The notes under the pieces were generated by a model, which saw nothing but the letters and a program-made list of their open reading frames with translations, searched no databases and had not been told where the DNA came from. The position numbers and the translations under genes were made by a program. A DNA stretch of 30,680 bases from a virus (Duplodnaviria; Caudoviricetes). The number at the start of each line of letters is the position of its first letter. Positions within the stretch are counted from its first letter, which is position 1. The stretch spans positions 1 to 30,680 of the IMG/VR virus record IMGVR_UViG_3300005512_000217, one strand, 5' to 3'. This document shows positions 3,437 to 19,107 of the stretch, one piece after another.

Positions 3437-5290
3437 TTAGGCTAGGAAACCGCCCCGCGCTGCTTGGACAGGCTGCTGCCCATTCTCTGCTATGCGCTGT
3501 TCGGTTTTTCTAATGCCTCGTTTATTAATCTTTTCTAGGCGGTCTTCGCCAATAATCTTTACTAGGTGTGGGGCTACGGTTACTTCGCCACTCGACACCG
3601 CAATATCTACAAGGTTTGAATGCCGTTCGAAGTCGTCTGTAGACAGACCCCGGCGAACCGCTTCCTTCTGGGCATCCATAATCATCTTGCGGATATCTTG
3701 TTCTCCCGCGAACTCGACGGCAGCCGCATTTATAACATACGTACCCTCTGGAGCCTTCATAGGACGGTCGTCAGCGACTTTATCGGCTTCGGAGACCTGT
3801 GATGGCGGGCGGTCTACAAAACCAGTCTGTGAGGCTTGTACCCCCGGTGGCGGGGTTCCCATTGCGTAGCCCTGTACTTTACCGCCCTTGGCGTGGGAAA
3901 GACCGAAGCCGCCGCCAGCACCATATCCAGCTTCGTCTCCTGAAGGTCCTTCATATCCGCCATCACCGCCGCCACTACTTCGTTCAATCTCTCTCTGAGA
4001 TTGGCTGGCTCTCGCATCATTATAAGCATCTTGAGCCGCTTGTTCCTGCTGTCTGCTTGCCTGCGCCTTGGCAGCCTTTTGTGATTTGATACCAGAAATA
4101 ATGTCTTTTAACTTGCCCTCTCTTTTACGTGCAGCAGACAATGCTTTAGAGGCTTCAATTTCAGTAATGCCATAGGTTTCGGCAAGAGATTTTAAATCAC
4201 TTGCGCGACCCAGCATTGAAACACGACCAAACCTGTCCATGTAAGCACCAGTATCGGTATAACGACCACCACCTGAAAGCTGACCACTGTACCCCGCATC
4301 TTCGAACCTAACCGCATCTTTACCTGTGTAATCGAAACCCAAGGTTCCACCGAAGGTACTTGGGACAAACCCCCGTTGCACAGCTTCAATGCTTCTTAAA
4401 GTATTGTTGTCTAGGCCGCGTGTGTTTCCTGTATAGGTTCCGGTTCCGGCCTTGCGGGTTATGCCGCCTGCTCCGGGGCCGCTTCCGAACGACATGGCGA
4501 AGCCGAAATCTCTTCGGCCTTCTGATATACTTCCATAAAGGTCTTCGTCCGGGTCGTCTATGGCATCTTGCAAATCACTGCTGTAGGCCCGTGCAACCGC
4601 CCTATTGTGCGCCATATCTGCGTACTGTCTGGCGTGAACCGCGTCTGCAAACTGACCCAAGATACCATCTGGTCGTGCGCTGATGTTTCCAAAAGCATTT
4701 GTTACAGTGGTGGTGCTAAGCAAAGAGGAACCTGCAAGAGCTAACATAGGGTTCGTGGCTGCTAAAAATCCCTTCGCGGCAGTTTTGGCATCGGGCTTTG
4801 TAGCACCCTCAACTATGTCGGTTCCAACACGGTCAGCAAGCCCCTTGGTTCCCGCTGAAAAGTCTATGTCCCCTAACCTACCAGATGTGAGAGGTTCCAT
4901 GACGTTTGAAATAAAGTCTACCCGGTCTGCCATTCCCGGTGGTTTTTCAGCGGATAGATAGTCAGAGTAAGAATCGTAGGTGCTATATGCGTCAAAGTTG
5001 TTGTACTCTATCCCAGTCCCACCCGGAAACATTGAACCACCTACAAAGTCTCCTTGGATACTTGTGGCATCTAGAACATTAAGGGCATCGTCTTGGCTGT
5101 CGCCGCCACCCTCACCAGCTATACCATACTCTTCCAGTTCCGTAATATCATCAGGGTCGACGACATCAATACCCGTATCTTCCAAGATACTTGTATCTAG
5201 GGCCTGTCTGTAAAAATCAACAGGGCCAGAAGTATATGTATCCCGGCTAATAGCTTCAGGAGTAAAGAAGGATGGTGGGTTAGTTGCCAT
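3437..5290 (-). CDS. Putative internal (ejected) virion protein
   Basis: 617 aa, G/A/D rich, between portal and scaffold; C-terminal AKGG motif followed by a DDRPM-APEG-YVINA-AV type domain. Confidence 0.6.
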   Translation of the reverse strand: MATNPPSFFTPEAISRDTYTSGPVDFYRQALDTSILEDTGIDVVDPDDITELEEYGIAGEGGGDSQDDALNVLDATSIQGDFVGGSMFPGGTGIEYNNFDAYSTYDSYSDYLSAEKPPGMADRVDFISNVMEPLTSGRLGDIDFSAGTKGLADRVGTDIVEGATKPDAKTAAKGFLAATNPMLALAGSSLLSTTTVTNAFGNISARPDGILGQFADAVHARQYADMAHNRAVARAYSSDLQDAIDDPDEDLYGSISEGRRDFGFAMSFGSGPGAGGITRKAGTGTYTGNTRGLDNNTLRSIEAVQRGFVPSTFGGTLGFDYTGKDAVRFEDAGYSGQLSGGGRYTDTGAYMDRFGRVSMLGRASDLKSLAETYGITEIEASKALSAARKREGKLKDIISGIKSQKAAKAQASRQQEQAAQDAYNDARASQSQREIERSSGGGDGGYEGPSGDEAGYGAGGGFGLSHAKGGKVQGYAMGTPPPGVQASQTGFVDRPPSQVSEADKVADDRPMKAPEGTYVINAAAVEFAGEQDIRKMIMDAQKEAVRRGLSTDDFERHSNLVDIAVSSGEVTVAPHLVKIIGEDRLEKINKRGIRKTEQRIAENGQQPVQAARGGFLA

Positions 5291-5507
5291 TTTTAACTAT
5301 TGCCTCGTGGTTAACTTTCAACTGAAGGAGCGTTTCCAGTAAAGCCGCTTTCCCCTGCAGTTGGCGCAGTTCCGACTCCGATTGTGCCGTTACCAGACCC
5401 CTGTGCGTCTGTTCCTTCAGGACTTGAAGATACGCCTCCAGCCCCTGCCATACCTGCGGCTGTGCCATCAGCGGCCCCAGCAGCTTCGCCTGTTCCTTGC
5501 TGTACAT
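5280..5507 (-). CDS. Small portal-adjacent protein overlapping the portal 3' end
   Basis: 75 aa, helical (ELRQLQGKAALLETLLQLK), AAGGA RBS upstream, stop overlaps the start region of the next gene. Confidence 0.65.
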   Translation of the reverse strand: MYSKEQAKLLGPLMAQPQVWQGLEAYLQVLKEQTHRGLVTAQSESELRQLQGKAALLETLLQLKVNHEAIVKNGN

Positions 5508-7437
5508 TTGCCATCATTCCTTTTAACATCTGTGCGTAGAGTTGTGCTTGGTTGGCATCGTTGACTAGGCTGTCTGGGTCGATATCTTGAGAGATAGCCA
5601 GTTCCCGCATCAGGTTCGGTATCTTGATGAATGGTGCCAGCATCGGGTTTGCAACGGTTTGCAACAGGGACGTTAACCGCTGTGTGCGAACCTCTTTTTG
5701 CATAACGGCTGCAACGCCGCGTGGTTTAATTTCTAAGTCACCTTGAATGTCTTCTGCGTCTTCGTTGAACTGCATGTTCCACTGGAAGTAGGCTTCGCCC
5801 AGAGGTTTCAAAAGCATGTCGTCAATGTTCTTGATGACGGTCTTCATGGATAAGCCAGCAGACCCCATGAGCATGGATAAGCCTGCAGCGGTTCGCCCAG
5901 TTCCGGTTACTCCTGTCTGTCCGTGCATGATTGACGGGATGCCTGTCTCTTCATCAGCAAGCTGACGACTAATCTGGTACATCTGCAGGTTTTCTCCTGC
6001 GGTGTTCGGAAACTTCAAGCCGTTGATGGCTGTTCCGGTAACACCAGACTGACGACGGAATATCTTGCCGGGGAAAATATCCATGTTCTGTCCCGGTACG
6101 AGACTAGCTTCATCTACGTCAAAGACAAGGTTGCCTGCAAGAGCCAAGTTGTCAATAGCCATGCGAACATGTCCGTTCATCAACTTCTGGGCATCTTCCA
6201 TGTTTTCCGCTACGCCAACGCCCCAGAGTTGGTATGGGTTGACTTCATAAGGAAAGACTTGGAAAGGAATACGTGCTGGTGTGAACGGGTTCAGGACACA
6301 GCGAATAACCATGTTTCCGCAAACCCAAACATTAACCTGTAGTTCGTCGAACTCTGACATTTCGTCAGCTTCAGAAAGACCGGCTTCGTAGGCCATCTTG
6401 GAATCGAGAACACCCCAATATTCTAGGACTTCATAACGATTACCTTGATAGTATGCCTCTGTTTCATCCTCACGAATAGTGTCTTCATAATACTTGTCCT
6501 CGTAATTAGGACCTTTGGCAAGACACTCTTCAATAGCTTCGGAATTAAAGTGGGGACGTTTAATCAACGCACGAAGCTGCTGGCGGTTCATGCGGTGACG
6601 TTGAATAACATATTCGCAGTCATCAATGCTAGTAGCAGATGGGTCTGGGTGGAAATCCCACACAGATACCATTTCAATCCGTGGAACGGTTTTTTCATCG
6701 GGGTTGTAAAAGCGTTCGCCGTTTTCATCGCGTTCCCATTTGTGAACACGCTTGAAGAAATTGAACGGACCCTTTACGATACCTGTCCCTAAAAGGGATG
6801 ACTCAAACACAGCGTTACGCATAACGTTGACTGCATTCGTGTCGGTTAGTTGGTCGTGAATAACTTTTTCCATCCGAAGGGCTGCTTCTTGGGCAGGGCT
6901 AATCTGAGGTTCGCCCATTCGCGCAGGTCCTGCTGCTAGCTGTACGCCTTCATACTTTTTATTCAAGCCACCTAAGAAGTCACCACCCGGCCCTGCTTGT
7001 AATGAACCCGGAGCTAGTTCGCGACCATCTCCTGAAAATCCATAGGGGTCTTGTGGCTGGTTCTGGTCCAGTGGAGTTTCCATGTGAGCAAACTCCGCAA
7101 TACCTTCTGGTACAGGAGTCGATTCAACAACAAGCGGAAACTTCTTGTTTGCGAACAGGATGTCGATTATCTGACCAAAGGCTGCAAGAACCTTGGTCTT
7201 GGTAATACGAACAAACACCTTGGACCGCTCTGAATCACGATACTGTGTAGTAGAATCGTAGATACCTCTAAAGTTTTTATATGCCTGTAGCCAACGCTGT
7301 TCGTGGGCGTATCGTCCGTTCTCAGCATCTTCGAACTTTGAATTGACATACGCGGCAAGGCCGGGCATAAGTTCTTCAGGAGCAACTACAGATACGGCGG
7401 TATCATCTTCAGGCTGGAGAAAGTTATCTTCTGACAT
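5311..7437 (-). CDS. Portal (head-tail connector) protein
   Basis: 708 aa; LGTGIVKGP, WDFHPDP, WGVGVAE, IDNLALAGN, RTAAGLSMLM are typical podophage portal motifs; located downstream of TerL. Confidence 0.9.
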   Translation of the reverse strand: MSEDNFLQPEDDTAVSVVAPEELMPGLAAYVNSKFEDAENGRYAHEQRWLQAYKNFRGIYDSTTQYRDSERSKVFVRITKTKVLAAFGQIIDILFANKKFPLVVESTPVPEGIAEFAHMETPLDQNQPQDPYGFSGDGRELAPGSLQAGPGGDFLGGLNKKYEGVQLAAGPARMGEPQISPAQEAALRMEKVIHDQLTDTNAVNVMRNAVFESSLLGTGIVKGPFNFFKRVHKWERDENGERFYNPDEKTVPRIEMVSVWDFHPDPSATSIDDCEYVIQRHRMNRQQLRALIKRPHFNSEAIEECLAKGPNYEDKYYEDTIREDETEAYYQGNRYEVLEYWGVLDSKMAYEAGLSEADEMSEFDELQVNVWVCGNMVIRCVLNPFTPARIPFQVFPYEVNPYQLWGVGVAENMEDAQKLMNGHVRMAIDNLALAGNLVFDVDEASLVPGQNMDIFPGKIFRRQSGVTGTAINGLKFPNTAGENLQMYQISRQLADEETGIPSIMHGQTGVTGTGRTAAGLSMLMGSAGLSMKTVIKNIDDMLLKPLGEAYFQWNMQFNEDAEDIQGDLEIKPRGVAAVMQKEVRTQRLTSLLQTVANPMLAPFIKIPNLMRELAISQDIDPDSLVNDANQAQLYAQMLKGMMANVQQGTGEAAGAADGTAAGMAGAGGVSSSPEGTDAQGSGNGTIGVGTAPTAGESGFTGNAPSVES

Positions 7438-7443
7438 CTGATT

Positions 7444-7650
7444 TTAGTAGTCGCGTTCTTCAGCCATTTTCATAACTGAGGGGTCCACTGCCGTTTTAGT
7501 CATCTTCTTTGGCATGTCCTCAGTCAGAACGCCTTGCTTTGCCATTGTGTTGAACTCAAGACCTTCACGATACAGCTTGGCTGCACCACCTTGGTCGTCA
7601 ACTGATGTTGTATCTGAGTTCATAATGTAAGCGGCACCCATCTTATCCAT
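7444..7650 (-). CDS. Small hypothetical protein, probably virion associated
   Basis: 68 aa with a strong AAGGAG RBS, between the 692-aa gene and the portal. Confidence 0.7.
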   Translation of the reverse strand: MDKMGAAYIMNSDTTSVDDQGGAAKLYREGLEFNTMAKQGVLTEDMPKKMTKTAVDPSVMKMAEERDY

Positions 7651-7660: not shown

Positions 7661-9739
7661 TTATCTAGATAAAAAGCCTTCGTCTCTAACAGGGGCGGCT
7701 TGAGGAACCCTGTCAGGTTCTGGAATCATGCCAGAATCTTGTGTGGCAAGTCGTGCCATCATGTCTTGGTCTGTTTGTTCTACTTCTCTAGCAGGAATAA
7801 AATCTTGTCCGGCGTAGGGTCCGGCAGGGTCTGCGGGGCGGTCCTCTGGGCGGAGTTCGCCGGAAGCTAGTTCACTAGGAGCCAGCATCATTGGAACTGC
7901 AGCGGCGGGGGCAGCACCAAAACCAACCGTCCTTGCTGCTCCCTCTAATCCCATTTCTGTAGCTATGGCTTGTCCAGTTTCTAAAGGTGCCTCTACAAAC
8001 TGACGACCAATCTCTAGAAGAACAGCACCCTTTACGCCCTTGCCTAATTTGTCTAGCATTTTAGAAAGAAGGCTATCCGTATTCACACCCTTTGCAATAG
8101 CTTTATCTGCCATTCCGGGAAAAGCTTCGTCTACGGAAGCAGGGGTAACGGGTTGTTTAGCAACCGGAACCTCTTCGCGAACCGGAAGGTCAAAGTAACC
8201 CTCATATCCTGCGGTTTGGGTCGTGATGCGAGTTTCTGGCATCGGGATTTTGGATTGGATATCGAAACCAGCATCCTTGGCAGCAGTTCCCCAAAATTCT
8301 GCGAACATGTTGGCATTCTGGCGGTCAACCTCACCAACTGCACCCGGAAACGCCTGCTGATAAGTTGTCAGTTCACCTGTGCTGCTCTTACCCGCTGATT
8401 TCAGGCTACGACCTTGCAAATAAGCGAGGCGGTCTTGGTCTACACCAATTGATTGACCCACAGTAGCGTGGATGTTACGTAAAAGGGCCGAACCTTTCTT
8501 ACCAGAGAAGCCTGCAGGAGCCAAACTGTCAAAATAACGGCCTGTACTGGCATCGAAAGCGATATCCTTGACCTTGACATCTTTTAACAAGTCTGTCATG
8601 TCTGCAGATGTAACAACTTTACCATTTGGCTTGACAAAGAAATTTTCTTTGTTGCCAGCAGCTAGGTTTTCTTGTAAGATGCTATCTGCAATCGGGTTCA
8701 AGGGGATGTTCACGGCTCGACCCTTGGCACCTTTGGTTTCTGCCTCAATGTAGATAGCACCGCTATCTGGCTTGTAGGCATTTAACTGAAGACCGGCAGC
8801 AGCGTTAGGACGAAGACCAGTGTTGAGGTTAAAAATGATTGCTTGTGCAATAGCTTTGGTGTTAGGGTTGTCAAGATACTTGGCGACACCCGCGAACAGT
8901 TGGCTCATCTTGGCTTTATCTGGGTTGATAGCAACCTCTGATACGGCCTTTGCTGGTTCGCTACGTCCAAAGATACGGTTGTTTAAATCTGTGTTCGGAG
9001 CCTTATCTGGCAACAGCTTGTATTCTGGTGTGTCAGGACCAAGCGAACCCTTTAAGGTTAAACCGACTTGGCGAAGGTTTTGCATCGCTGTTTTTACAGT
9101 CGATGTATCCTCAGTGCCTTTAAAAGTCTTTGAAAGAAGAGTGTTTCCTTCGGGGTCCTTTTCGAACAGCCGTAGGGCGGAGCCGGGTTCATCTGCAATG
9201 TCTTTAAAAAATTGTAATGAAGAAGTAACAAACGCCTTACCCCGCTTCGACTTCTCAGCGTAGGATTCAGCAACTTCACGGAGAGTAGCGGTTTTGGGGT
9301 CTAGTTCTGCCACGGGTTGATTTGCTGCCTTCGGTGTTTTTGCTGTTGTTATATTCTTGGATGCAGATGCGCCTTTTTCTTGCATCTCCATAGTCTTGCC
9401 AAATTTCTTTTGATAATCCTTAAAACTTTTCTCTTCGAACATTTCAGGTGCTTCTAAACGAATGGCATCTGCAATGCTAAATTTTGCATTTTCATCTGCA
9501 AGCGGAAAGCCACTAAAATCTAAAAACGCTATGGCTTGTTCGGCAGTTAATTTTTTAGGCGTTTTTACTCGTGTTTGACCCGGTTTTCCCCCAAAAGCCT
9601 CGAACAGTGCTTTCATATCCTCATCAGAACTGTTTTCAATATAGGGGATGTCCATATATTGTCTGAAAACAACTAAAGCATCTTGTACAATCTTTTGGGC
9701 AGTACCTTTTCCTTTATTGATGTTTGTTATCTCTGCCAC
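7661..9739 (-). CDS. Large protein with a central tyrosine recombinase-like domain
   Basis: Box I NTGLRP, TKG lysine, R-VNIPL, box II ALLRNIHAT, LQGR, and TTY tyrosine; long low-complexity flanks. Confidence 0.7.
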   Translation of the reverse strand: MAEITNINKGKGTAQKIVQDALVVFRQYMDIPYIENSSDEDMKALFEAFGGKPGQTRVKTPKKLTAEQAIAFLDFSGFPLADENAKFSIADAIRLEAPEMFEEKSFKDYQKKFGKTMEMQEKGASASKNITTAKTPKAANQPVAELDPKTATLREVAESYAEKSKRGKAFVTSSLQFFKDIADEPGSALRLFEKDPEGNTLLSKTFKGTEDTSTVKTAMQNLRQVGLTLKGSLGPDTPEYKLLPDKAPNTDLNNRIFGRSEPAKAVSEVAINPDKAKMSQLFAGVAKYLDNPNTKAIAQAIIFNLNTGLRPNAAAGLQLNAYKPDSGAIYIEAETKGAKGRAVNIPLNPIADSILQENLAAGNKENFFVKPNGKVVTSADMTDLLKDVKVKDIAFDASTGRYFDSLAPAGFSGKKGSALLRNIHATVGQSIGVDQDRLAYLQGRSLKSAGKSSTGELTTYQQAFPGAVGEVDRQNANMFAEFWGTAAKDAGFDIQSKIPMPETRITTQTAGYEGYFDLPVREEVPVAKQPVTPASVDEAFPGMADKAIAKGVNTDSLLSKMLDKLGKGVKGAVLLEIGRQFVEAPLETGQAIATEMGLEGAARTVGFGAAPAAAVPMMLAPSELASGELRPEDRPADPAGPYAGQDFIPAREVEQTDQDMMARLATQDSGMIPEPDRVPQAAPVRDEGFLSR

Positions 9740-9741
9740 GA

Positions 9742-11463
9742 CTAATATCCAAATGTAGCATCATAGGGCTTAAAGGTCTGGTCCTTTATCCCCTGAAGCG
9801 TTTTATGTATAGATTGATAACCAGATGTTCGCGTCATAACCATATATCGCAACGCATCATAGGCATGGTCCTCTGCTCGCGTGTCTACATCTTCGCTGTT
9901 AGTTTTGGAGAGTGGAATGCCTGATAACTGTGCAATGATATGCTTACAAGTGGAAAAAATCCGCATACGGGGTTCTTTGGAGTATGGGTCGTCAGCAAGC
10001 CGCCTGTGTAGTTCCATTTTTCCTTGAAGACGGTTGCGGTCTGAGGGAGTCCACCTAACCCCGGCCCTCATCATAGTTTCTGCGATTGATGGGCCGAATC
10101 CGGTTTTGTTCCAGCAGGAAGAGTCAAGGACCGTATAGTGTGGTGTAGGGTCTAACTCTTCACATTCTAATATTTTATCAGCCAATTGCTCTGCTGTCAA
10201 GTGTTTTACGTAAAGTTCACGATAAACCCAAATATTATTATCCCAGTCAATAGCACCCCACAGAACACACGACGGCGACGAGTAGCCGTAGTCGGCGGCT
10301 CGTATGCGGGGCCAGTTCGTGGGAAGGTCAAAATGTTCGACCACATGTCGTGTCCTTGAAAACTCTGGGAAGGCCGCTCCCTCTGCCACATCCCAATCCC
10401 CTTCAAGAAGCCGTCTACGCTCGACTTCTGGGAGTGACCGAAGCATGGCCTCGTACTGACCATCTGCCATCAGGAAGGGGTTATCTGTCAGCCGTGCTGG
10501 GATAAACTTGCGGTAGAACAGAGGCTGACCTGCTTTTGGATGATTTTCAGGCCACACGAAAGTACGGCCTGTCTCTAGGTCTTTAGCCCCGAACGCCTTA
10601 TTGGGTTCGTGAGCATCAATGTACATCTTCTTGACCCACCAGCCACCAACACCGCCGGGGTTTGCTGTGCAGCGCATGGTCAGGTTCTTTTGTAGTTCAG
10701 GGTCTGTTGAACGGAGACGAGAACGCAAGTAATCCCAGACGTAGCTCGACGGGTATTGAGTTATCTCATCTATGCCAATCCAGTTGAACGCCTGTCCCTG
10801 AAAACGGGTAACGTCTTTGTCCCTGTCGAGATAGGTGAACCACATGGTTGCACCAGACGGGAACACCCACGTTGACTTCGACTCGCGGAAGATGGCTCCG
10901 GGAAAAGCCTTGGGGTATAACTGCTTTGACTTGTCGATGAGTTCTGTTAGTTCGTCTAACGTGCGGCGAAGAAGAAGTCCACGATGATTAGCATTGTGAC
11001 AATAGCGTAAGGGGTCAGCAAGTAGAGCAAACGACTTGCCTCCGCCAGCGGCTCCCCCATAGAGTACATCTTGTTCAGGGGCAGAGAGGAAATCTTCTTG
11101 AGGCCCCTCGTTAGGTTTAAATATAACAGGCGTGTCATCTATCAGGTCCGTTACGGCTTGGGGTAATACATCTAAATCACCAGCGTCTACTACGCGGGTC
11201 TTGTTGCCGTTCAGGGCATCTTGTATGTTCGCGGCTGCGGCAGTTAGGTCCTTGACCTTCTTGCGCTTGCGAGCAACACGAGTTTCTTCACGTTGCTGTT
11301 GCTTCTTTGCATTCCGCAACTTCATCTGCACAGAACGCCGCGCACGTTCCCGGTCACTAATCTTGTGCGTGGTTTTGGATTCGCCGGGTCTTTTCTTAGG
11401 TCTTCCGACCTTGCCTAAGTCTTCTGGGTTCGGGGGGACTAGGACTCTTTTGCGTGGGGCCAC
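9742..11463 (-). CDS. terL: Terminase large subunit
   Basis: Walker A YGGAAGGGKS, Walker B IGIDE, motif III TANPGG, nuclease DYG and EDHAYDALRY. Confidence 0.95.
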   Translation of the reverse strand: MAPRKRVLVPPNPEDLGKVGRPKKRPGESKTTHKISDRERARRSVQMKLRNAKKQQQREETRVARKRKKVKDLTAAAANIQDALNGNKTRVVDAGDLDVLPQAVTDLIDDTPVIFKPNEGPQEDFLSAPEQDVLYGGAAGGGKSFALLADPLRYCHNANHRGLLLRRTLDELTELIDKSKQLYPKAFPGAIFRESKSTWVFPSGATMWFTYLDRDKDVTRFQGQAFNWIGIDEITQYPSSYVWDYLRSRLRSTDPELQKNLTMRCTANPGGVGGWWVKKMYIDAHEPNKAFGAKDLETGRTFVWPENHPKAGQPLFYRKFIPARLTDNPFLMADGQYEAMLRSLPEVERRRLLEGDWDVAEGAAFPEFSRTRHVVEHFDLPTNWPRIRAADYGYSSPSCVLWGAIDWDNNIWVYRELYVKHLTAEQLADKILECEELDPTPHYTVLDSSCWNKTGFGPSIAETMMRAGVRWTPSDRNRLQGKMELHRRLADDPYSKEPRMRIFSTCKHIIAQLSGIPLSKTNSEDVDTRAEDHAYDALRYMVMTRTSGYQSIHKTLQGIKDQTFKPYDATFGY

Positions 11464-11466: not shown

Positions 11467-11739
11467 CTAATCGTCGTCGTCATCTTTACGGACGATGATT
11501 TTCATACCGTCTATTTCTTCGACGGTAGTCTCTGCAGACTTAGCTGCTTTACGAGTTTTGCCGGTCAACCCTGCTTTTTCTGCAAGGTAGATGATTGCAG
11601 ATGAAAGAGGAGAACCTGCCTTTGGGTCCGTTGCAATTTCTTTATAACTACGAGAAGGAACAGTACCGTCCTTATTTAAAAGTGTGCGTGTTTTTTTTGA
11701 CATAACCTCAATCCTTATTTCCTTGGGCCTTGCGACCAC
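11467..11739 (-). CDS. Hypothetical protein
   Basis: 90 aa in the packaging operon; the start is uncertain. Confidence 0.5.
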   Translation of the reverse strand: MVARPKEIRIEVMSKKTRTLLNKDGTVPSRSYKEIATDPKAGSPLSSAIIYLAEKAGLTGKTRKAAKSAETTVEEIDGMKIIVRKDDDDD

Positions 11740-11992
11740 GGCAAGATGACATCTTCTTCACACCGCCCTTGGGGGTGCCGTACCGGTAGCCGGGGACTTT
11801 GCCGCCCTTGGCTTTGGCTTTCTGTTCGCGAACCTCGTAGCCGAACTTCTTCAACTGAGACTTCAGGAACCGTGATGCTTCTGCGTCTGACATTTCTTCT
11901 TTTCGTGCGAAATCCATAACACGAGACACAACCTCATCGTAGCTAGGTTTTTCAGGTGATAGGGCTTTCATTGCGTTTCTTGCTAGTTCCAT
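11708..11992 (-). CDS. Hypothetical small protein with an AKGGKV-GY-YG motif
   Basis: 94 aa, coupled to terS; the motif is shared with two other proteins. Confidence 0.65.
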   Translation of the reverse strand: MELARNAMKALSPEKPSYDEVVSRVMDFARKEEMSDAEASRFLKSQLKKFGYEVREQKAKAKGGKVPGYRYGTPKGGVKKMSSCRGRKAQGNKD

Positions 11993-11996: not shown

Positions 11997-12398
11997 TTAT
12001 CCGTCTATGACGACCTCTTTCTTGGGTGGCAACAGGACAACCCCGTGGATTGCCTGTACGTTGTGGTTCATTGTTTCCTGTTTTGCGATACCAACGCGGT
12101 TCAGGATGCTTTCCGCTGCCTTCATCCGCAAGTCATCTCCACGTTCGATGTCAGGGGCCGTTACGAGGCTTGCCAACTTGTTCGCGGCTGACAAGGAGTG
12201 GCCCGCTAACATGACTTTGGTGCGTTCGATGATTTCATCGGCTAGACGTTCCTTTAACCACGTAACTGACTTGGGGGAATAGCCAACGAGTTCGGCAGCA
12301 ACGGTCATATTGCCGTTGTTTTCGAACAAGGCATCTAGGAACTGCTCCTGCTTTTCAGTTAGGGCAGCTTTTTTATTTGTCTGGGGTAATAAATTCAT
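11997..12398 (-). CDS. terS: Terminase small subunit
   Basis: LTEKQEQFLDAL..AAELVGYS HTH, AAESILNRVG, C-terminal VVLLPPK; upstream of terL. Confidence 0.8.
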   Translation of the reverse strand: MNLLPQTNKKAALTEKQEQFLDALFENNGNMTVAAELVGYSPKSVTWLKERLADEIIERTKVMLAGHSLSAANKLASLVTAPDIERGDDLRMKAAESILNRVGIAKQETMNHNVQAIHGVVLLPPKKEVVIDG

Positions 12399-12404
12399 AA
12401 GGAT

Positions 12405-12605
12405 TTACGTTGAAGTACCTTTTATGTTGGTACACTTCCATTTTATATTTAGTTCAAAGAGATTCACACTCTTGGCAAACTCTGCCATTTCGTCGATACG
12501 ACGGATGCAGTCGGGTTTACTGGTGTAGGGACCTCTTGTGTCGTTCAACTCAACACATTCTTCGGGTGCTGCAGCTAAACATATCAGTAGGGCAGCTTCG
12601 AACAT
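12405..12605 (-). CDS. Small Cys-containing protein with a hydrophobic N-terminus
   Basis: Start re-set to ATG 12605 (RBS GGGAG): MFEAALLICLAAAPEECVEL...GPYTSKPDC...KWKC. Confidence 0.65.
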   Translation of the reverse strand: MFEAALLICLAAAPEECVELNDTRGPYTSKPDCIRRIDEMAEFAKSVNLFELNIKWKCTNIKGTST

Positions 12606-12639
12606 GGTGTTCTCCCGCGAACATGTGGCATACCCTTGT

Positions 12640-12668
12640 ATTATGGGGGGTTTTGGAACCCCTGTCAA
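12640..12668 (-). promoter_or_regulatory. sigma70-type promoter TTGACA-17-CATAAT heading the packaging/structural module
   Basis: -35 at 12668-12663, -10 at 12645-12640. Confidence 0.7.
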
Positions 12669-12719
12669 CCCGTTTCCTGCATGGTTTACCATAAAATAAC
12701 CAAAAATGAAAAAAAGGTG

Positions 12720-12748
12720 TTGACAAATCGTGAATTTGACTGTACCAT
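12720..12748 (+). promoter_or_regulatory. sigma70-type promoter TTGACA-17-TACCAT
   Basis: -35 at 12720-12725, -10 at 12743-12748, with an A-tract upstream; divergent from the promoter at 12668. Confidence 0.7.
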
Positions 12749-12754
12749 GGGACT

Positions 12755-12859
12755 AGTCCTGCCGGGGTAAACCCTATATCCACCCCGGTTCTCCCCCGGT
12801 ACCCCCAAAGGTTCGCAAAGTTACCCCCTGTTGGTTCGCCCAGCGGGGGTTTTTTCTTT
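12755..12859 (+). ncRNA. Candidate small RNA of about 105 nt
   Basis: Bounded by a promoter and an intrinsic terminator; 5' stem GCCGGGGU/ACCCCGGU; C-rich linker; no credible ORF. Confidence 0.55.
12825..12859 (+). terminator. Intrinsic terminator
   Basis: CCCCUGUUGG/CCAGCGGGGG stem followed by UUUUUUCUUU. Confidence 0.7.
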
Positions 12860-13025
12860 GGGGACCCCTGTCTCCCCAATGGTTCGCAAATTAACCATAC
12901 CGATAACCTAAAAAGTAGAAAAAATATGTCGGGTTTGCATAGCAAATGCCGGGGGGGTGGGGTGTCCCTCGCGTACCCGCGCACGGTCAGAAATTTATTT
13001 CGTTTTGTCACATCGCCGATACCTT

Positions 13026-13080
13026 AACCCCGCGAACATAAGCCAAACCCCGCGAACACACACACTAAACCCCGCGAACA
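13026..13080 (+). repeat. Three direct repeats of AACCCCGCGAACA
   Basis: Copies at 13026-13038, 13046-13058 and 13068-13080 (periods of 20 and 22 bp). Confidence 0.9.
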
Positions 13081-13235
13081 TACGCGCCCGCCCGCGCCCG
13101 TGTAGTTGATTTGTCATGCCGGATAGATTGGGGGATGGCCTTTCGGCCTAAAGAATATATACAATCCCAACCAAACCAGCCCGCCGGATATACAAGGGAT
13201 TACCGCCGGTTACCGCCCATTAATATAACCGGCAC

Positions 13236-13270
13236 AAAAAAACCCCCCCGCCGACTAGGGCAAGGGGGGC
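13236..13270 (-). terminator. Intrinsic terminator closing the early region
   Basis: Minus strand CCCCCUUGCC-cuaguc-GGCGGGGGGG followed by U7. Confidence 0.75.
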
Positions 13271-13336
13271 AAGGTTGGGGCGGGTTTATAGGGAGGATAG
13301 CAACAACCCCCGCCCCATGGGTTCGCAGGGTTCCCC

Positions 13337-13633
13337 CTAGTTGTTCGCGGGAGACGCGACAAGCTGCATGGCGTGGGTGAATGGGTCGACGTCGCGGTCA
13401 TCAAAGGTTCGTTGAGTTACCGGCTGTGTTCCCTCGAAGATAGCCGAACCATTATCAAGATGCCCAAACCGGTTCGCGGCTGCCATCAGTTCGGGGCAAT
13501 GCTTATCCAATATCGCCCGCTGGTTCAAATCCATGCAGGCAACAGCATTGTGCAAACTGCGAACAGCCCCTTGCAAAGCAAATGCGCGGGTATCAACAAC
13601 GCCAACATTTAAGAGATAAGATTTAAAAGACAT
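13337..13633 (-). CDS. Hypothetical early protein
   Basis: 98 aa; RBS GAAAGGA and its own promoter upstream. Confidence 0.7.
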   Translation of the reverse strand: MSFKSYLLNVGVVDTRAFALQGAVRSLHNAVACMDLNQRAILDKHCPELMAAANRFGHLDNGSAIFEGTQPVTQRTFDDRDVDPFTHAMQLVASPANN

Positions 13634-13690
13634 GGTTCGGTTCCTTTCGGTAAATGGTAAAAGAGCGGGGCAACATCACCCCGCCCTAAT

Positions 13691-13719
13691 GTTATGACAC
13701 AACCGGAATCAGGATGCAA
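13691..13719 (-). promoter_or_regulatory. Promoter TTGCAT-17-CATAAC followed by a 5' GCGGGG/CCCCGC hairpin
   Basis: -35 at 13719-13714, -10 at 13696-13691; the leader resembles the one at 15301-15328. Confidence 0.55.
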
Positions 13720-14104
13720 GCCGGTAAAGTTTCCGGTATTCCCTGCGCCCGCTGCGCTTGGTTTCAATCTGGTAACCATGCCGCCGGATATCATTCATGT
13801 AAGTCATAAGGGTATGCTGACTATATCCCAGCAATCCCCGCAACATTGGGGTCGTGGTATAATCCCGCTTCAATTCGGCAATGATGCGGTAATGTCCCTT
13901 GCAAAGTGTTCGCGGGCGTTTCACCGGCTCGACTGGTGTCGCCGCTGCCGTGGCTTCTGGCAAGCTTTCAACAAGCGGCCTGCCGTGGTCGTTCCATGCC
14001 TCATAGAGACTGGCACGAAGCTTGGCCTTGGCCTTGTTTTCGGCAAGGGTCATCAGTTGTTCGCAAAGTTCCTTCATGGCCTTATCATTATCAAACTGTG
14101 TCAT
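13709..14104 (-). CDS. Hypothetical protein with a C-terminal winged-HTH-like region
   Basis: Start re-set to ATG 14104 (MTQFDNDK); LRGLLGYSQHTLMTYMNDIRRHGYQIET...YRL resembles a wHTH. Confidence 0.6.
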   Translation of the reverse strand: MTQFDNDKAMKELCEQLMTLAENKAKAKLRASLYEAWNDHGRPLVESLPEATAAATPVEPVKRPRTLCKGHYRIIAELKRDYTTTPMLRGLLGYSQHTLMTYMNDIRRHGYQIETKRSGRREYRKLYRLAS

Positions 14105-14163
14105 TTCGTGGTTCTTTCCGCCCCGCAGGGCATTGGTTGGTTTAAGCAATAAAGACCGCATAT

Positions 14164-14192
14164 ATTATAGAGATTATCAACAGCACGGTCAG
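14164..14192 (-). promoter_or_regulatory. Promoter CTGACC-17-TATAAT
   Basis: -35 at 14192-14187, -10 at 14169-14164. Confidence 0.6.
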
Positions 14193-14273
14193 ACTGCGAT
14201 AAATTACATAAAGGGCTTCCATCGGTTATCTTTCATATCACAAAGAAGATTAAGAAGAGCAACACGGTTTCAA

Positions 14274-15275
14274 TCATGCTGCTAACTTTCCGGCAAAGCC
14301 CAGCCATGCCTTAGACTGTATAAGGTCACGAACAGCAATTGAGTTATCAAGCCGTTTCTTCTCTTCCCTGCCACCTTTGTTTGCATCGGGCAAATGAGTT
14401 GACCAGTGGGTTAGGGCATTAAATGCCGCCCACATTGTCTGGCCTAATTCGCGGGTTTCTTTCCCATACAGGTCTAATAAGGTCGCAAGCTTCTTTTGAT
14501 TGACTTTCAATTCGTCATTATTTTCGGCAACTTTTCCCGCCTTATCTATTAAACCGGAAGCAATCAAAACATCATTAAACTGCTTTTCGGTCATGGTTTT
14601 CTCGCGGTAAAGCTGCATCGTTTCCGATTGTTCGGTCCACATATCCAAACCTAAAACGCCTTTTGTGATTAGGGCTGCGCTATTCATGTTTTTTGTATGT
14701 TTCATTTTCTGGTGATATGCCTTTTCCCCGCCAAAAACCAAGGTATTGCGGCAAAGGTCACGATAAGCCCCGCTGAACACTTGCAGCGTCCAAGTTTTAT
14801 CAACACTATTAAAGATATCCAGACGACACCGGCTCACATCCTCTTGACCTGTTCTCGTCCGGCTGCGGTCGATTAAATCGTGAAAATAGATTGTCCGGTG
14901 AACACGCAAACCCTCTTGGTATATCCGGTCGCAAACTTCCACATTGCCTAGTTTACCCCGCAAACCGGAACCGCTCAAAATGTCGGATTGTTCCTGCATC
15001 AGTTTGTGGTGTGGTTTTAAGCTGTAGGTTTCAAGATTAAACGGTACAATATCAACAACCCGATTTGTGCGGATATTTTGCAAAGCGTGATATTTCATGC
15101 GCTGCATATCAACAATGCCGTTCGGGTCAGTGGTGACCGCTTCCACCGGCACCGGCTCGAAGCTGGCGAATTCATGGTAAAGACTGCAATCATTTATATC
15201 ATGATGGACGCTAAAAATATCCTCGCCTTTTGCTTTAGCGTTTTCGATTGCTTTGGTTGGTATCAAATCAAACAT
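14274..15275 (-). CDS. DUF932/DUF945-like protein
   Basis: 333 aa; IFNSVD, GAYRDLCRNTLV, MKHT, TMWAAFNALTHWSTH match the family pattern. Confidence 0.75.
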   Translation of the reverse strand: MFDLIPTKAIENAKAKGEDIFSVHHDINDCSLYHEFASFEPVPVEAVTTDPNGIVDMQRMKYHALQNIRTNRVVDIVPFNLETYSLKPHHKLMQEQSDILSGSGLRGKLGNVEVCDRIYQEGLRVHRTIYFHDLIDRSRTRTGQEDVSRCRLDIFNSVDKTWTLQVFSGAYRDLCRNTLVFGGEKAYHQKMKHTKNMNSAALITKGVLGLDMWTEQSETMQLYREKTMTEKQFNDVLIASGLIDKAGKVAENNDELKVNQKKLATLLDLYGKETRELGQTMWAAFNALTHWSTHLPDANKGGREEKKRLDNSIAVRDLIQSKAWLGFAGKLAA

Positions 15276-15322
15276 GGTTGGTTATTCCTTCTTGTTGGTT
15301 AGCGGGACAACCCCGCCTAACT

Positions 15323-15351
15323 GTTATGCCACCGCCCGCCGAATCGGTCAA
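15323..15351 (-). promoter_or_regulatory. Promoter TTGACC-17-CATAAC followed by a 5' hairpin
   Basis: -35 at 15351-15346, -10 at 15328-15323; GCGGG/CCCGC hairpin at about 15302-15316. Confidence 0.6.
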
Positions 15352-15503
15352 CAATAAAAATAGATAAATAAAATGGATGCCGCCCCGCGACTCGCGACAC
15401 CCGCTGCTAATACCGCACCCAATCCCCCCGAACCACCAAGGATAATTGCAAGTAACATACTAGCCCCAATCAAAAAGTTTAGCGTGGTTGATTTGTCATT
15501 TGG

Positions 15504-16208
15504 TCAATGCGTAACAAACAAGATTTGTTTATCCGGTGCAGACCAACACAGGGTACAGGTCGCGCACGATTCCGCCTTGCCGGTTTGTTCAGGACAAACG
15601 ATAGATTTGTTTTTAACTGGCTTGAATAAGTCGGCACTGTTCGCGCTAAACTGCCAATCCGGTGCGTTACTAAAACGGACGTTGAACCGGTCACCAAACC
15701 CGCCCCGAACGGCACGAAGCGCAAGCCCGATATCGCTGTTTGGCTCATAGCCGGTAAAGCCCCAGACCGCCAAATTATCAAATTTAGATAACAGATGCTG
15801 CCAGACTGCAACATAATCAACAGAATAAAAGTCGCCTAACACATGCAACCGGACAATCACCCCTTTATAGGTGGCGCATAGTTCTTCTATCTCATTTTTT
15901 ATTCGCTGTTCTAATTCGCTGCCATGCTGCAGCCGGTGCGCGAACATCATATTATTACCATAGCAATTATCCCAATGGTAACAAGAGCGGGGACAGGTGG
16001 CGCGTTCTTCTAAAGTTAAGGTGTAAATCACATAGCCCTTGAACTTGCCCTTTTTAATTACAGGCAATCTATCTTTTGAAAGCTTCGTATTTTTAGACTG
16101 CTTTAAAACCTGATTAAAACTGCCATCTTTCCTTTTATAATCCGCCAGCATTTTAACGGATTTGGGATACATGGTCACGGCTGGCTTGTTTATATCTGCC
16201 TTTTTCAT
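15504..16208 (-). CDS. GP88-like Cys-rich (radical SAM-like Fe-S) protein
   Basis: TCPRSCYHWDNCY, VRLHVLGDF, and C-terminal CP...CATCTLCW. Confidence 0.7.
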   Translation of the reverse strand: MKKADINKPAVTMYPKSVKMLADYKRKDGSFNQVLKQSKNTKLSKDRLPVIKKGKFKGYVIYTLTLEERATCPRSCYHWDNCYGNNMMFAHRLQHGSELEQRIKNEIEELCATYKGVIVRLHVLGDFYSVDYVAVWQHLLSKFDNLAVWGFTGYEPNSDIGLALRAVRGGFGDRFNVRFSNAPDWQFSANSADLFKPVKNKSIVCPEQTGKAESCATCTLCWSAPDKQILFVTH

Positions 16209-16244
16209 CGGTTCGGGTTCCTTTGTTGGTTTGTTGATTACCTA

Positions 16245-16273
16245 CCTTTAAGGATAATAACCGGCATGGTCAA
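16245..16273 (-). promoter_or_regulatory. Promoter TTGACC-17-TAAAGG
   Basis: -35 at 16273-16268, -10 at 16250-16245, upstream of the GP88-like gene. Confidence 0.5.
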
Positions 16274-16475
16274 GCCCTTTTATTTGCTGCCCTTGTTTTT
16301 TTAGATAACATTTAGGACAGGACAGCCCCGCCGATTCGCGAACCATCGCCGGTTCCCCGCAATCATCGCAACGATACGCAGGGTTTAGCGTGGTTGGTTT
16401 GTCACGTTTTAGCGTGGGTAGCTGCCCATTCTTGTTTTGCCGGAATTGCTCATGTAAGTTCCATCCCACAAACAC
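16248..16475 (-). CDS. Small zinc-finger protein
   Basis: CDDC...CPKC; the start is uncertain (67-nt overlap with the upstream ORF). Confidence 0.5.
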   Translation of the reverse strand: MFVGWNLHEQFRQNKNGQLPTLKRDKPTTLNPAYRCDDCGEPAMVRESAGLSCPKCYLKKQGQQIKGLDHAGYYP

Positions 16476-16855
16476 TTTTGGATTTTAAAGTTCCTGACCT
16501 TTAACGCATGACAGCCAGACCCAAATATTTTCCAAAACAATTTATCTAGAAAGTAGCTAGACATCATTTCGTACGCAGTCATTTGGTTAGGGTGCTTTGA
16601 CAGAAATTCTAGTCTATCTTGGTACGCCTGTTTGTTTTCAAACTGAAGTTTTTTGGTTATCAAGACAGGTTGCGCTGCTTCTTTTTCCTTGCGCTTTGCC
16701 CATGCCTTTTTCATGGCCTCGCTTCGTTTACGAAATTCTTTCAGGTGTTTTTCGCCCTGTTTAATAAGTTCTTTTTGCCGCTCCTCTTCCATCTTTTCCT
16801 TCAAGGGTTGCAGAGCCGCGAACGGACTAGCACCATTTGGATAATAGTTTCTCAT
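16409..16855 (-). CDS. Hypothetical protein
   Basis: 148 aa; GGAG RBS; ATGA overlap with the upstream gene. Confidence 0.65.
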   Translation of the reverse strand: MRNYYPNGASPFAALQPLKEKMEEERQKELIKQGEKHLKEFRKRSEAMKKAWAKRKEKEAAQPVLITKKLQFENKQAYQDRLEFLSKHPNQMTAYEMMSSYFLDKLFWKIFGSGCHALKVRNFKIQKCLWDGTYMSNSGKTRMGSYPR

Positions 16856-17055
16856 ATGTACTTACTCCAGTAGTTGTCCCAAGCTTCACGCAACATATCA
16901 GCATATTCTCTGTCGTTGTGCAAGCCCAAAAAATCGCGGTGCGGTTCCATCTCTTGCATGAACTCGCCAAAGAACTCGCAGTTGCCTATCTTACTGTTGG
17001 CAAGATACCAGAAATCTTCTTCTAGTTGCATTGCCCAAGCTTTGACCTTACCCAT
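16852..17055 (-). CDS. Hypothetical protein (MGKVKAWAMQLEE)
   Basis: GAAAGGA RBS before ATG 17055; alternative start at 17112. Confidence 0.65.
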   Translation of the reverse strand: MGKVKAWAMQLEEDFWYLANSKIGNCEFFGEFMQEMEPHRDFLGLHNDREYADMLREAWDNYWSKYI

Positions 17056-17236
17056 GCTTTTTCCTTTCGGGTTGAAATACACGAATTTTTGAAATGCCTT
17101 CGTATACTTCATCTAATTCTTTCCTGATACGCAACGCCGCTTCATACACCTCGCCACCGTTACCGTCTTGGTTAGGTAAAAGACCAGCGTTACCGTAATC
17201 TATGATGTACTTTAAGATAATTGAAATGTCGCTCAT
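17048..17236 (-). CDS. Hypothetical protein
   Basis: 62 aa, directly abutting the upstream stop. Confidence 0.55.
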   Translation of the reverse strand: MSDISIILKYIIDYGNAGLLPNQDGNGGEVYEAALRIRKELDEVYEGISKIRVFQPERKKHG

Positions 17237-17299
17237 TTAGAAATCCCCGACTTCTGTTTCAAACGCATCATAATCTTCCTTGATACGCAACGCCGCTTC
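17125..17299. repeat. 19-bp direct repeat TGATACGCAACGCCGCTTC
   Basis: Copies at 17125-17143 and 17281-17299; both encode EAALRI. Confidence 0.9.
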
Positions 17300-17482
17300 T
17301 TCGGCATATTTAGCCTCTTCGAACTTGGAACGTGTCGTGTGGTAAGCCATCAGCATTGCAGCAAACTCAGGGAATGTTTCCCAATCAGGTCTGCCGTGTG
17401 TATCAAATATGTAGTCAATTTCAGTGTCGAGTGCTACCAGTATGGCGTTGACTTGTTTCTTTGGTAGGTTAAGCGTTATCAT
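17237..17482 (-). CDS. Hypothetical protein
   Basis: 81 aa; GGAG RBS; ATGA coupling. Confidence 0.7.
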   Translation of the reverse strand: MITLNLPKKQVNAILVALDTEIDYIFDTHGRPDWETFPEFAAMLMAYHTTRSKFEEAKYAEEAALRIKEDYDAFETEVGDF

Positions 17483-17805
17483 CTGTCGTCTCCATCATAA
17501 CCATGAAATTTGATATATTCTCTTATCTTATCTTTTGCTTCTTTAACGTGACCATATATGTCATCTAACGTGCTGTCAACTATGTCGGCATTCTCTAAGA
17601 TTTTAGCTGATTCATTTAGGAACGCCAAGATATCCAAGCTGGTAAATTCAGATAGGACATGTAGGTCACCTTCACCATCACAGACATCACACTTACCATA
17701 GGTGCTATCTATCCAGCCACCGTTCGCAAAGTCTGTGACCGGTTTGTCGTATTCGGCAATGCCGCCACCGTTACAGGCGAGACAGGTTCTAATTATCGTT
17801 GCCAT
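17479..17805 (-). CDS. Protein with a DnaJ-type CxxCxGxG zinc finger
   Basis: Start re-set to ATG 17805 (AAGGAG RBS); CLACNGGG and CDVCDGEG. Confidence 0.7.
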   Translation of the reverse strand: MATIIRTCLACNGGGIAEYDKPVTDFANGGWIDSTYGKCDVCDGEGDLHVLSEFTSLDILAFLNESAKILENADIVDSTLDDIYGHVKEAKDKIREYIKFHGYDGDDR

Positions 17806-17962
17806 CGGTTGTCTCCTTGTCATTAGAAGGGAAAAGTCGTACATCCAGTCCTAGTTTGTCCGCCCTTCGTTGGAGTTCTTCGGGAATAGGTTTGCCTAGC
17901 ATCTGAAGTCGCTTTGCAATAGAACCCACCCACTCCCTATTAAGGTTGTCGTAATTACTCAT
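17789..17962 (-). CDS. Hypothetical protein, 57 aa, not in the ORF track
   Basis: AGGAG RBS; MSNYDNLNREWVGSIAKRLQMLGKPIPEELQRRADKLGLDV... Confidence 0.65.
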   Translation of the reverse strand: MSNYDNLNREWVGSIAKRLQMLGKPIPEELQRRADKLGLDVRLFPSNDKETTDGNDN

Positions 17963-18125
17963 CGGTTATCTCCTGTACTCTCAACACTTTGGTATTTTCA
18001 CCACCGACTAAGCCCACCATATCTATCTGGGCTTTTATCTGTGCCTCATATTCTGTGTTAGCGTGGACAATAACTTCACGAGTTGTTGTCGCCTCTACCT
18101 TAACTTCCCAAGTTCTTTCAGACAT
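17955..18125 (-). CDS. Hypothetical protein, 56 aa, not in the ORF track
   Basis: AAGGAG RBS; MSERTWEVKVEATTTREVIVHANTEYEAQIKA... Confidence 0.7.
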   Translation of the reverse strand: MSERTWEVKVEATTTREVIVHANTEYEAQIKAQIDMVGLVGGENTKVLRVQEITDE

Positions 18126-18126
18126 A

Positions 18127-18267
18127 TTAATACTCCTTCAATGTATCTATTACCAGATAAATAACTATAGCTAAACTCACCACCAGATACCCTATAACAA
18201 ACAGGTCGTCCATTCCCACGTCGGGCATTTGGTTACCTAAACAAACCAAAGTCTGGCAGTCAAGCAT
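18127..18267 (-). CDS. Small single-pass membrane protein, 46 aa, not in the ORF track
   Basis: Hydrophobic stretch LFVIGYLVVSLAIVIYLVI; fills the gap in the operon. Confidence 0.55.
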   Translation of the reverse strand: MLDCQTLVCLGNQMPDVGMDDLFVIGYLVVSLAIVIYLVIDTLKEY

Positions 18268-18499
18268 AATATCTGCCTTCCCAGTCTTTTATCTTGAACT
18301 TGTATTGCATAGCCCTCCTACGGCTACAAACAATAATACCACCAACCCAGACCTCGTTGTCTGCAACCCTCACGCGGCGTAATCTTTCACCGTGTACCTT
18401 GTCGGCTGCATCTAGAGCAAACGAACTGGATGGGTGCGGGTTGCTGACTATCGGTCTGGTGAACGGATGCTGGATAACGTACCATGAGGGATTAGCCAT
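18260..18499 (-). CDS. Hypothetical protein
   Basis: 79 aa; TAATG coupling to the upstream gene. Confidence 0.65.
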   Translation of the reverse strand: MANPSWYVIQHPFTRPIVSNPHPSSSFALDAADKVHGERLRRVRVADNEVWVGGIIVCSRRRAMQYKFKIKDWEGRYYA

Positions 18500-18786
18500 T
18501 ATCCCTGCTCCCGCACATCAAAGTTAAACTCGTGGCGCAACCTGTCTTTTGCATCAGATAGTTCTTGTAGGTCGTGGGCAGTAACAGCTTTGATACCGCC
18601 CATGTCAGGATACAAAGCAGTCTCTAGAATCTCGTCTAGCAACTCATATACCTTGATGACAGCAACCCGCTGGTCGAGGGACAACTTTGCTATGCGGTTA
18701 CGGCGTTGGATGCGGTCTTTTTCACGCAAGGCTGCGAAGTAAGCAATGCGTTCATCAGGTGTCATGTTCTCTAGTTTCTTAGCCAT
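18499..18786 (-). CDS. Hypothetical protein
   Basis: Start re-set to ATG 18786 (GGAG RBS): MAKKLENMTPDERIAYF. Confidence 0.7.
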   Translation of the reverse strand: MAKKLENMTPDERIAYFAALREKDRIQRRNRIAKLSLDQRVAVIKVYELLDEILETALYPDMGGIKAVTAHDLQELSDAKDRLRHEFNFDVREQG

Positions 18787-18816
18787 TTCATTTCTCCATC
18801 GGCTGTTGATTAGTAA

Positions 18817-18845
18817 CCAATATCGGAAACAAAAAAGGGTGTCAA
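18817..18845 (-). promoter_or_regulatory. Promoter TTGACA-17-TATTGG
   Basis: -35 at 18845-18840, immediately after the terminator U-tract. Confidence 0.55.
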
Positions 18846-18846
18846 C

Positions 18847-19105: not shown

Positions 19106-19107
19106 AT

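Follow-up and report, generated by a model that had tools for sequence, protein, structure and literature searches.

A predicted tyrosine-recombinase-fold protein encoded between the terminase and portal genes of an HMO-2011-type phage lineage

The gene between TerL and portal

We analysed a 30,680-nt stretch of tailed-phage DNA (Duplodnaviria; Caudoviricetes; positions 1 to 30,680 of IMG/VR record IMGVR_UViG_3300005512_000217), hereafter the window, and in it the gene that fills the slot between the genes for the terminase large subunit (TerL) and the portal protein, and that encodes a predicted tyrosine-recombinase-fold protein. This slot gene (7661..9739, minus strand; 692 aa) is, as judged by the open reading frame (ORF) listing and by its relatives, a real ORF, which runs from a GTG start at 9739 down to 7661 and begins 2 nt past the stop codon of TerL (9742..11463, minus strand). 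It is followed by a conserved 68-aa gene, o68 (7444..7650, minus strand), and then by the portal gene (5311..7437, minus strand); TerL and portal were both identified by Pfam and PHROG matches. The gene is tightly enclosed, with 0–3 nt upstream and approximately 10–30 nt downstream, and the abutment or overlap of the TerL stop with its start may reflect translational coupling.

The slot protein comprises an optional N-terminal module, a tyrosine recombinase core and a tail. The N-terminal module (residues 1–142; 9314..9739, minus strand) fits no known family, gave no usable match in the ESM Atlas and was seen in our data on slot proteins only, where it precedes several classes of core. With respect to the N-terminal domain of arm-binding phage integrases, most relatives lack the module and begin at the core-binding (CB) domain, and an in-frame GTG at residue 143 coincides with the start of most of them. 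The core consists of the CB domain (residues 144–265; 8945..9310, minus strand), all-helical in our model and with a dN/dS of 0–0.05, and the catalytic domain (residues 266–492; 8264..8944, minus strand), delimited by alignments and structural comparison; domain definitions for tyrosine recombinases are found in the accessible part of PMC8138268. The tail (residues 521–692; 7664..8179, minus strand), which recombines independently of the core, ends in GFLSR (7664..7678, minus strand), an instance of a C-terminal tag, [GS]F[LIMV] within the last 25 aa, that is a putative capsid-loading signal. The initial annotation spoke of K/A/G-rich extensions; the tail is in fact Ala/Gly/Pro-rich and acidic (net charge −10), not Lys-rich, with one mildly hydrophobic stretch. 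A transmembrane tail was ruled out, as a hydropathy of 1.6 was reached by only 8 of 75 tails, and the tail gave ESM Atlas matches under 0.9 only.

We place the phage in the HMO-2011-type group because it has a Pol A with a DnaJ insert and a portal that is 50–54% identical to those of HTVC115P, HTVC033P and HTVC103P/104P and 48% identical to that of HMO-2011. These named phages have short genes or none between TerL and portal. In the lineage of the window, one of marine podoviruses, all 109 loci that hold TerL and o68 (some contigs were fetched twice) encode a 529–816-aa protein in between, and in a scan with divergent o68 all 60 loci spanning TerL and portal match the core profile, as compared to none of 65 loci of a low-GC, HTVC033P-like sister lineage; each slot scan covered the best 80 matches, and the core profile was built from the slot family itself. 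The position that had been read from a single sequence is, therefore, fixed in this lineage. Homologs of o68 are present in the recombinase-free sister lineage too, and one of its loci (HTVC033P; L048, 4,341–4,859) has two tandem o68-like genes before portal, the slot being without a recombinase. When 1.84 billion representatives were searched with a profile, 106 proteins came back, and those of full length make up a graded series of additional classes. Among cultured phages, tblastn with two classes against 50,697 phage records found no homolog, and a 66-row profile found no match in five cultured relatives, which is a weak negative given that the same profile missed the HMO-2011 integrase too.

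Nor did we find an ordinary integrase, in agreement with the initial annotation: the search for a second integrase in 10 relatives (two rated complete) and the core profile run over stretches of 8 genomes returned at most the slot gene. The HMO-2011-type integrase gene sits upstream of the replication module (PMC9038755), whereas the slot gene lies between TerL and portal in every locus, and the early integrase present in subgroups I and III is missing from the lineage. The accessible part of Qin et al. (2022) describes HMO-2011-type subgroups IV–X as having no identifiable lysogeny genes.

Two further features of the backbone differ from HMO-2011. Small early-type genes (DUF932, gp88-like and others; 13,337–19,555) are on the late strand, pointing toward TerS, and their divergence from the primase falls at ~19.6–19.8 kb; HMO-2011 has its early genes, integrase and primase all in one direction. 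Pol A (21,796–23,887) is divided into a 195-aa exonuclease ORF and a 530-aa ORF for the DnaJ-insert polymerase in overlapping frames; the division recurs in the relative G001 (a 54-kb record rated 100% complete), while HMO-2011 and CRP-3 have one CDS, which suggests a natural split or a programmed frameshift.

Fold and catalytic residues

Library matches of the slot protein are weak (PF00589, E=0.031; PHROG integrase, E=4e-4), and searching the PDB by sequence gave nothing informative (XerH, E=0.28). We modelled residues 143–522 with AlphaFold (79 rows; pLDDT 87), and in this model residues 144–492 form a unit of core-binding and catalytic tyrosine-recombinase domains. Foldseek matched the core model to Tn1549 Int (best E 5e-6), XerH and lambda Int, and the BFVD matches were phage integrases (no row among the 50 matches listed is named VLF-1, many of them bearing no name). 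VIA-align gave Z-scores of 14.0 for XerA (rmsd 8.6, 252 aligned, model residues 8–345), 13.0 for lambda Int, 12.4 for the lambda Int catalytic core (rmsd 2.8, 153 aligned) and 5–7.4 for isolated integrase CB domains. Both domains of the fold named in the initial annotation are thus matched by structure and, as modelled, the slot protein core is a tyrosine-recombinase fold. A second class, folded separately (pLDDT 80), has tyrosine-recombinase-superfamily entries in its top 27 rows (best Z 8.5).

The closest structural company is that of the simple tyrosine recombinases (XerA 4a8e, lambda Int 1p7d/1ae9, Brujita Int 5vfz, IntI 2a3v and Tn1549 Int 6emy), with which the slot family shares the CB and catalytic fold (Z 12–14, 9–16% identity) and the R, K, R and Tyr positions. 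It departs from them in having no HxxR His (75 of 75 divergent representatives), mostly Arg at the H/W position, a tagged tail of 150–300 aa, a late-operon position and no site that we could find. A kinship with protelomerases or type IB topoisomerases (TopIB), which the initial annotation had raised, is not favoured: the catalytic fold is common to them and the slot protein, but they score below Int and Xer (TopIB Z 7.6–9.4, TelA 6.2, TelK 6.0). Their hallmark is a KxxR Lys at the HxxR His position; this residue is Ala in the slot protein and Lys in only 4 of 75 representatives.

To follow the catalytic residues we used two sets: a close set made up of the 120 best rows (the slot protein itself and 119 relatives, 50–95% identity) of a search that found 287 relatives at E≤1e-3 among 8000 scored, and a divergent set of 75 representatives under 60% identity. 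R310 (8810–8812), K339 (8723–8725), R421 (8477–8479), the class-specific H424 (8468–8470) and R444 at the H/W position (8408–8410; all minus strand) are invariant in the 120 best rows, and Y460, at the position of the Tyr nucleophile (8360–8362, minus strand), is present in all 119 that have a residue there. Across the divergent set the catalytic Arg R310 is kept in 73 of 75 (the other two are truncated), the conserved catalytic-position Lys K339 in 61 in the aligned column, the second Arg R421 in all 75 and the Tyr in 69, the remaining six having it one column off. The R-K-R-Y set proposed from the sequence of the window is, therefore, conserved. The motifs quoted in its support do lie at 8360–8812, with the correction that the conserved Lys is K339 and not K336 of TKG, which varies (87 of 120 close rows, 15 of 75 divergent representatives). 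Within the slot protein's class, dN/dS in the catalytic domain is 0.03–0.06 in 12 of 12 comparisons.

The tyrosine recombinase active site is defined by the RKHRH+Y set, according to the accessible part of PMC8138268. In the slot protein the HxxR His is replaced by Ala (A418, 8486–8488, minus strand), and none of the 75 representatives has it; at the H/W position 53 have Arg, 21 His and one Ser. The initial annotation had pointed out the replaced HxxR His. It is not diagnostic, since the integrases of HMO-2011 and CRP-3 lack it as well (MDLRR and RDLRR) and CRP-3 integrates, at tRNA-Met, with an attP that overlaps the host tRNA at its 3' end (PMC6918029, accessible part). Judging from the alignments, the lost His residues lower the 'canonical' status of the enzyme and not its 'active' status, and conservation of the set across classes only ~20% alike makes a DNA cut-and-rejoin activity likely. 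The early integrases HMO-2011 gp09 and CRP-3 gp02 belong to the same phage group as the slot gene and share the His-less DLRR motif, but are 292–357 aa long, are encoded upstream of the replication module and, in CRP-3, use a tRNA attP; their sequences do not match the slot family to any meaningful degree (best score 9.5 bits; no profile match). By sequence, then, the slot protein is not an early integrase of the HMO-2011 type, and it lacks the protelomerase/TopIB motif.

Interchangeable cores and the search for a target site

Beyond what a single sequence could show, the core is a swappable cassette with many classes: there are at least 12, mostly 19–33% identical, exchanged between near-identical genomes, with TerL forming the left edge and o68 the right flank. 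Among 67 distinct loci, 176 pairs have a TerL end at least 90% and a portal start at least 85% identical; in 84 of these pairs the cores are less than 40% alike (19–33% in the 40 pairs listed). For instance, L009 and L067 have flanks that are 100% and 99% alike and cores that are 24% alike. Placed on a quick TerL and portal tree, the 12 classes require 23 changes, as compared to a minimum of 11 and a mean of 42 after shuffling; they cluster, therefore, without being simply inherited. DNA homology ends, in 16 pairs, ~20 nt or less from the start codon, or at the end of a shared N-terminal module, and resumes at varying points of the tail or past the slot gene stop. Such breakpoints fit homologous recombination in the flanks, and the sequences give no sign of self-mobility. 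Tails and N-terminal modules are shuffled between core classes too. In contigs of four public runs, cover over the slot gene is mostly below that of the flanks, with loose ends at the gene start; contigs from RNA runs cover the gene in part, and transcription is not inferable from such contigs. A profile comparison of class A with class B/C is weak (probability 5%, E=0.007), and their kinship is suggested by motifs, intermediate classes and the two separately predicted folds.

Between genomes the slot gene falls to 23–28% identity, the post-portal protein and the large internal-protein candidates mostly to 22–48%, while Pol, RNR and helicase of the same genomes stay at 60–99%. Among 70 close pairs, identity is below 40% for the core in 25 and for the post-portal N-terminus in 43. 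As the post-portal protein varies too, hypervariability is not unique to the slot gene; its two-peaked pattern is. The post-portal protein (617 aa in the window; 3437..5290, minus strand) is itself a second hypervariable cassette, with lengths of ~560–1,090 aa and identities of 30–99% among relatives, and the tail tube A and B candidates of G001–G010 vary between 28 and 83% though the portals are 73–92% identical.

We searched for a DNA site that might serve the enzyme. No tRNA genes were found in the window or in 32 loci, and a T-loop scan for a tRNA-type attP was negative in the window and 8 relatives (several of them incomplete), the CRP-3 site being recovered as a control. Attachment sites inside integrase genes are known (PMC8371274, accessible part); the slot gene has no clear synonymous dip, the lowest in-core ratios being 0.65–0.68 as compared to a median of 1.03. 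No long palindrome of the tel type is present among the 25 longest inverted repeats in 11.9–20 kb. We found no prophage among 185,579 genomes, a weak negative because marine hosts are represented mostly by metagenome-assembled genomes (MAGs). The only hit was a 2.9-kb contig of a Thermoplasmatales MAG (L139, 1–2,911) with a slot-like tail, o68 and portal; it holds phage genes only and is probably a mis-binned phage fragment, not host evidence. An invertase acting on the early region was ruled out, as the orientation is the same in every locus that reaches that region.

The initial annotation had proposed GTTCGCGAAC and the 12.9–13.3 kb region as substrates. While GTTCGCGAAC has 7 copies in the window, none lies in 12.9–13.3 kb, which holds non-palindromic CGCGAAC repeats, a motif strongly over-represented genome-wide (z ~15–20). 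GCGAAC occurs 83 times in the window (18.9 expected), densely at 12,000–14,000 and 20,000–22,000, and TTCGCGAA 12 times (0.7 expected), both in coding and non-coding DNA; relatives on another backbone (G006–G009) are enriched for AAACCGAC instead of GCGAAC. GCGAAC/GTTCGCGAAC are dense (20–29 per 10 kb) in L067, L076 and L079, which have other classes on the same backbone, and sparse (3–7 per 10 kb) in L023 and L032, which have the same class on another backbone; upstream of TerS, L009 and L067 are 92% alike over 956 nt despite their different classes. We therefore reject GCGAAC or GTTCGCGAAC as a class-specific substrate: density follows the TerS/TerL backbone, not the enzyme class, as is also the case for AAACCGAC, and the GCGAAC-type motif is possibly recognised by TerS or primase. 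With no class-specific phage site supported, the enzyme would either be relaxed in its specificity, or recognise structure, or else have its target elsewhere than in the phage. A separate, promoter-like TGACAAATCAAC-like motif is repeated on the minus strand upstream of early genes, at 13,102, 15,484 and 16,390.

A possible virion role

The likeness of the C-terminal GFL to the GGFLA end of the 617-aa post-portal protein, a likely internal virion protein, extends to relatives. Across 8 genomes, every slot protein (7 of 7) has the [GS]F[LIMV] tag within its final 25 residues, as does a 180-aa protein encoded ahead of two large internal-protein candidates (6 of 6 copies); of the post-portal proteins 4 of 8 have it. 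This makes 17 of 21 overall, as compared to 6 of 429 other ORFs, a background that includes spurious ORFs; the tag is also present in 73 of 85 distinct slot proteins. The tag is thus common to likely internal proteins and rare elsewhere, in keeping with the initial annotation. Neither PHROG nor Pfam names the 180-aa protein, the post-portal protein or the large internal candidates, although one relative's post-portal copy has a C-terminal domain of the cell-wall hydrolase type (E=1e-4, below cut-off). The 180-aa protein has homologs in 14 phage records, with GFM 14–16 residues from the end in phiM6 and a GGLMSRRT end lacking the motif in CRP-1; by position and size it may be likened to T7 IVP-B. 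Together with a divergence pattern like that of internal proteins, the tag makes capsid loading of the slot protein likely on sequence grounds. Among the small proteins nearby, a 94-aa protein upstream of TerL (11,708–11,992) and the post-portal protein (3,437–5,290) have an AKGGKV stretch of 21 residues in common (62%), and similar KGG repeats are seen in small basic proteins of G001.

Two known systems offer comparison. Baculovirus VLF-1, the closest functional analogy, is a tyrosine recombinase with a role in morphogenesis, a virion component whose Tyr is required for infectivity according to the accessible part of PMC3649998; it belongs to a eukaryotic virus with a circular genome, and its virion location is proven whereas that of the slot protein would follow from the tag. 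Internal virion proteins (IVPs) of podoviruses carry enzymes into the cytoplasm, and those with passenger enzymes (N4 vRNAP gp50, H66 gp60) diverge fast and bear the enzyme domain on a low-complexity extension; no recombinase passenger is described among them in the accessible part of PMC4819975. There the IVP block lies after the tail tube genes, and in the complete relative G001 it lies away from the slot gene, which is outside the IVP operon and has the short tag alone in common with it.

We favour the reading, at a probability of about 0.4, that the slot protein is an active enzyme, loaded into the capsid and ejected, which nicks and rejoins the incoming genome with relaxed specificity. 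It would be made late together with terminase and loaded via its C-terminal tag, both of which are likely steps, and would then be injected with the DNA, where it would join the ends of the linear genome or relax it, no class-specific site being needed. The substrate is the weakest of these proposed steps: since classes interchange without a co-varying site, the enzyme would have to tolerate many sequences or recognise DNA structure. The many classes would be an outcome of host-facing selection on an injected protein, spreading when homologous recombination takes place in TerL on one side and in the tail or o68 on the other. A wider formulation, to which we give a little under even odds, is that of an integrase turned obligatory capsid passenger (tagged, injected and acting in the first minutes of infection), its dozen-plus ancient classes being kept by conflict with hosts or rival phages. 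Several observations weigh against our preferred reading. Both the HxxR His and the H/W His are replaced in the slot protein's class. Tyr460 adjoins a low-confidence segment of the model and most structural alignments end before it, so its placement in the active site derives from sequence. Core identity is two-peaked (mostly ≥77% or ≤25%) under strong purifying selection, and such discrete, conserved classes are typical of site-specific enzymes, which is awkward with relaxed specificity. The tag is three residues long and no receptor for it is known; of the 75 divergent representatives, 44 have it and 31 do not. Finally, the slot gene lies outside the internal-protein cluster, beside TerL, a location that equally suits a role at the packaging stage.

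That last possibility, a late, non-ejected enzyme that resolves concatemers, branches or junctions for terminase, its tail docking on the procapsid or motor, we consider unlikely. The slot gene's presence in every lineage locus and the contact of its start with the TerL stop in the 16 pairs inspected would suit such an enzyme, and VLF-1 has been termed a genome-packaging factor (PMC11654684, accessible part). However, a partner of TerL should follow TerL, yet the classes change far more often on the tree than the minimum, and the sister lineage has TerL and portal homologs without a slot gene. The window also already has a homolog of endonuclease I, the junction resolvase of T7. Less probable still is a capsid-loaded conflict effector, with each class recognising a site of its own in non-self DNA, be it the host chromosome, resident elements or rival phages, and cutting or rearranging it there; the gene would then have no need of an accompanying phage site. 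This would accommodate discrete classes that are internally conserved yet swapped among near-identical genomes, the lack of a co-varying phage site and, within single samples, the drop of cover over the slot gene between covered flanks with loose contig ends at its start; it names no target or host, and the slot is never empty, unlike that of most accessory conflict genes.

A relocated lysogeny integrase with a missed attP seems about as improbable as an effector. Integrase alleles are often exchanged among related phages, the top structural matches are Int and Xer enzymes, the early integrase is absent from the lineage and the His-less DLRR motif of HMO-2011-group integrases is found in many slot classes. 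Against it stand the few nucleotides on either side of the gene, the absence of a tRNA 3' half in the window or 8 relatives by a scan that found the CRP-3 site, the lack of a marked synonymous dip in the core and, more weakly, the negative prophage search; the late-operon position and the long tail would be left unexplained. The least probable by far is the DNA-binding exaptation entertained in the initial annotation, that is, a non-catalytic regulator or DNA packer with a recombinase fold. There are phage proteins that use this fold outside integration: MrpR of SPbeta is reportedly involved in lysis-lysogeny control (PMC10516654), SroF of phi3T acts in lysis-lysogeny control, and both are among our structural matches (SroF Z 8.8, MrpR Z 6.7), to which the two replaced His positions may be added. 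Across 75 representatives, as little as ~20% identical, the slot family nevertheless keeps R, K, R and Tyr, and a dead enzyme is not expected to retain its Tyr.

In our searches of the open-access literature neither the slot gene nor any packaged tyrosine recombinase of a phage was found to have been reported. Some members of the family are called 'integrase' by automatic annotation, which misses many others, and lifestyle predictions for these phages are, therefore, unsafe either way. Dozens of catalytic variants that occur in nature (R-K-x-R-R-Y) are available in the family. With a recombinase as a fixed part of the head operon, tailed phages would have a virion or packaging function that is new, or else an abundant marine group would have a lysogeny route that is hidden; if the wider formulation given above is true, the slot protein would be a tailed-phage counterpart of VLF-1, and its classes a large untapped pool of recombinase specificities.

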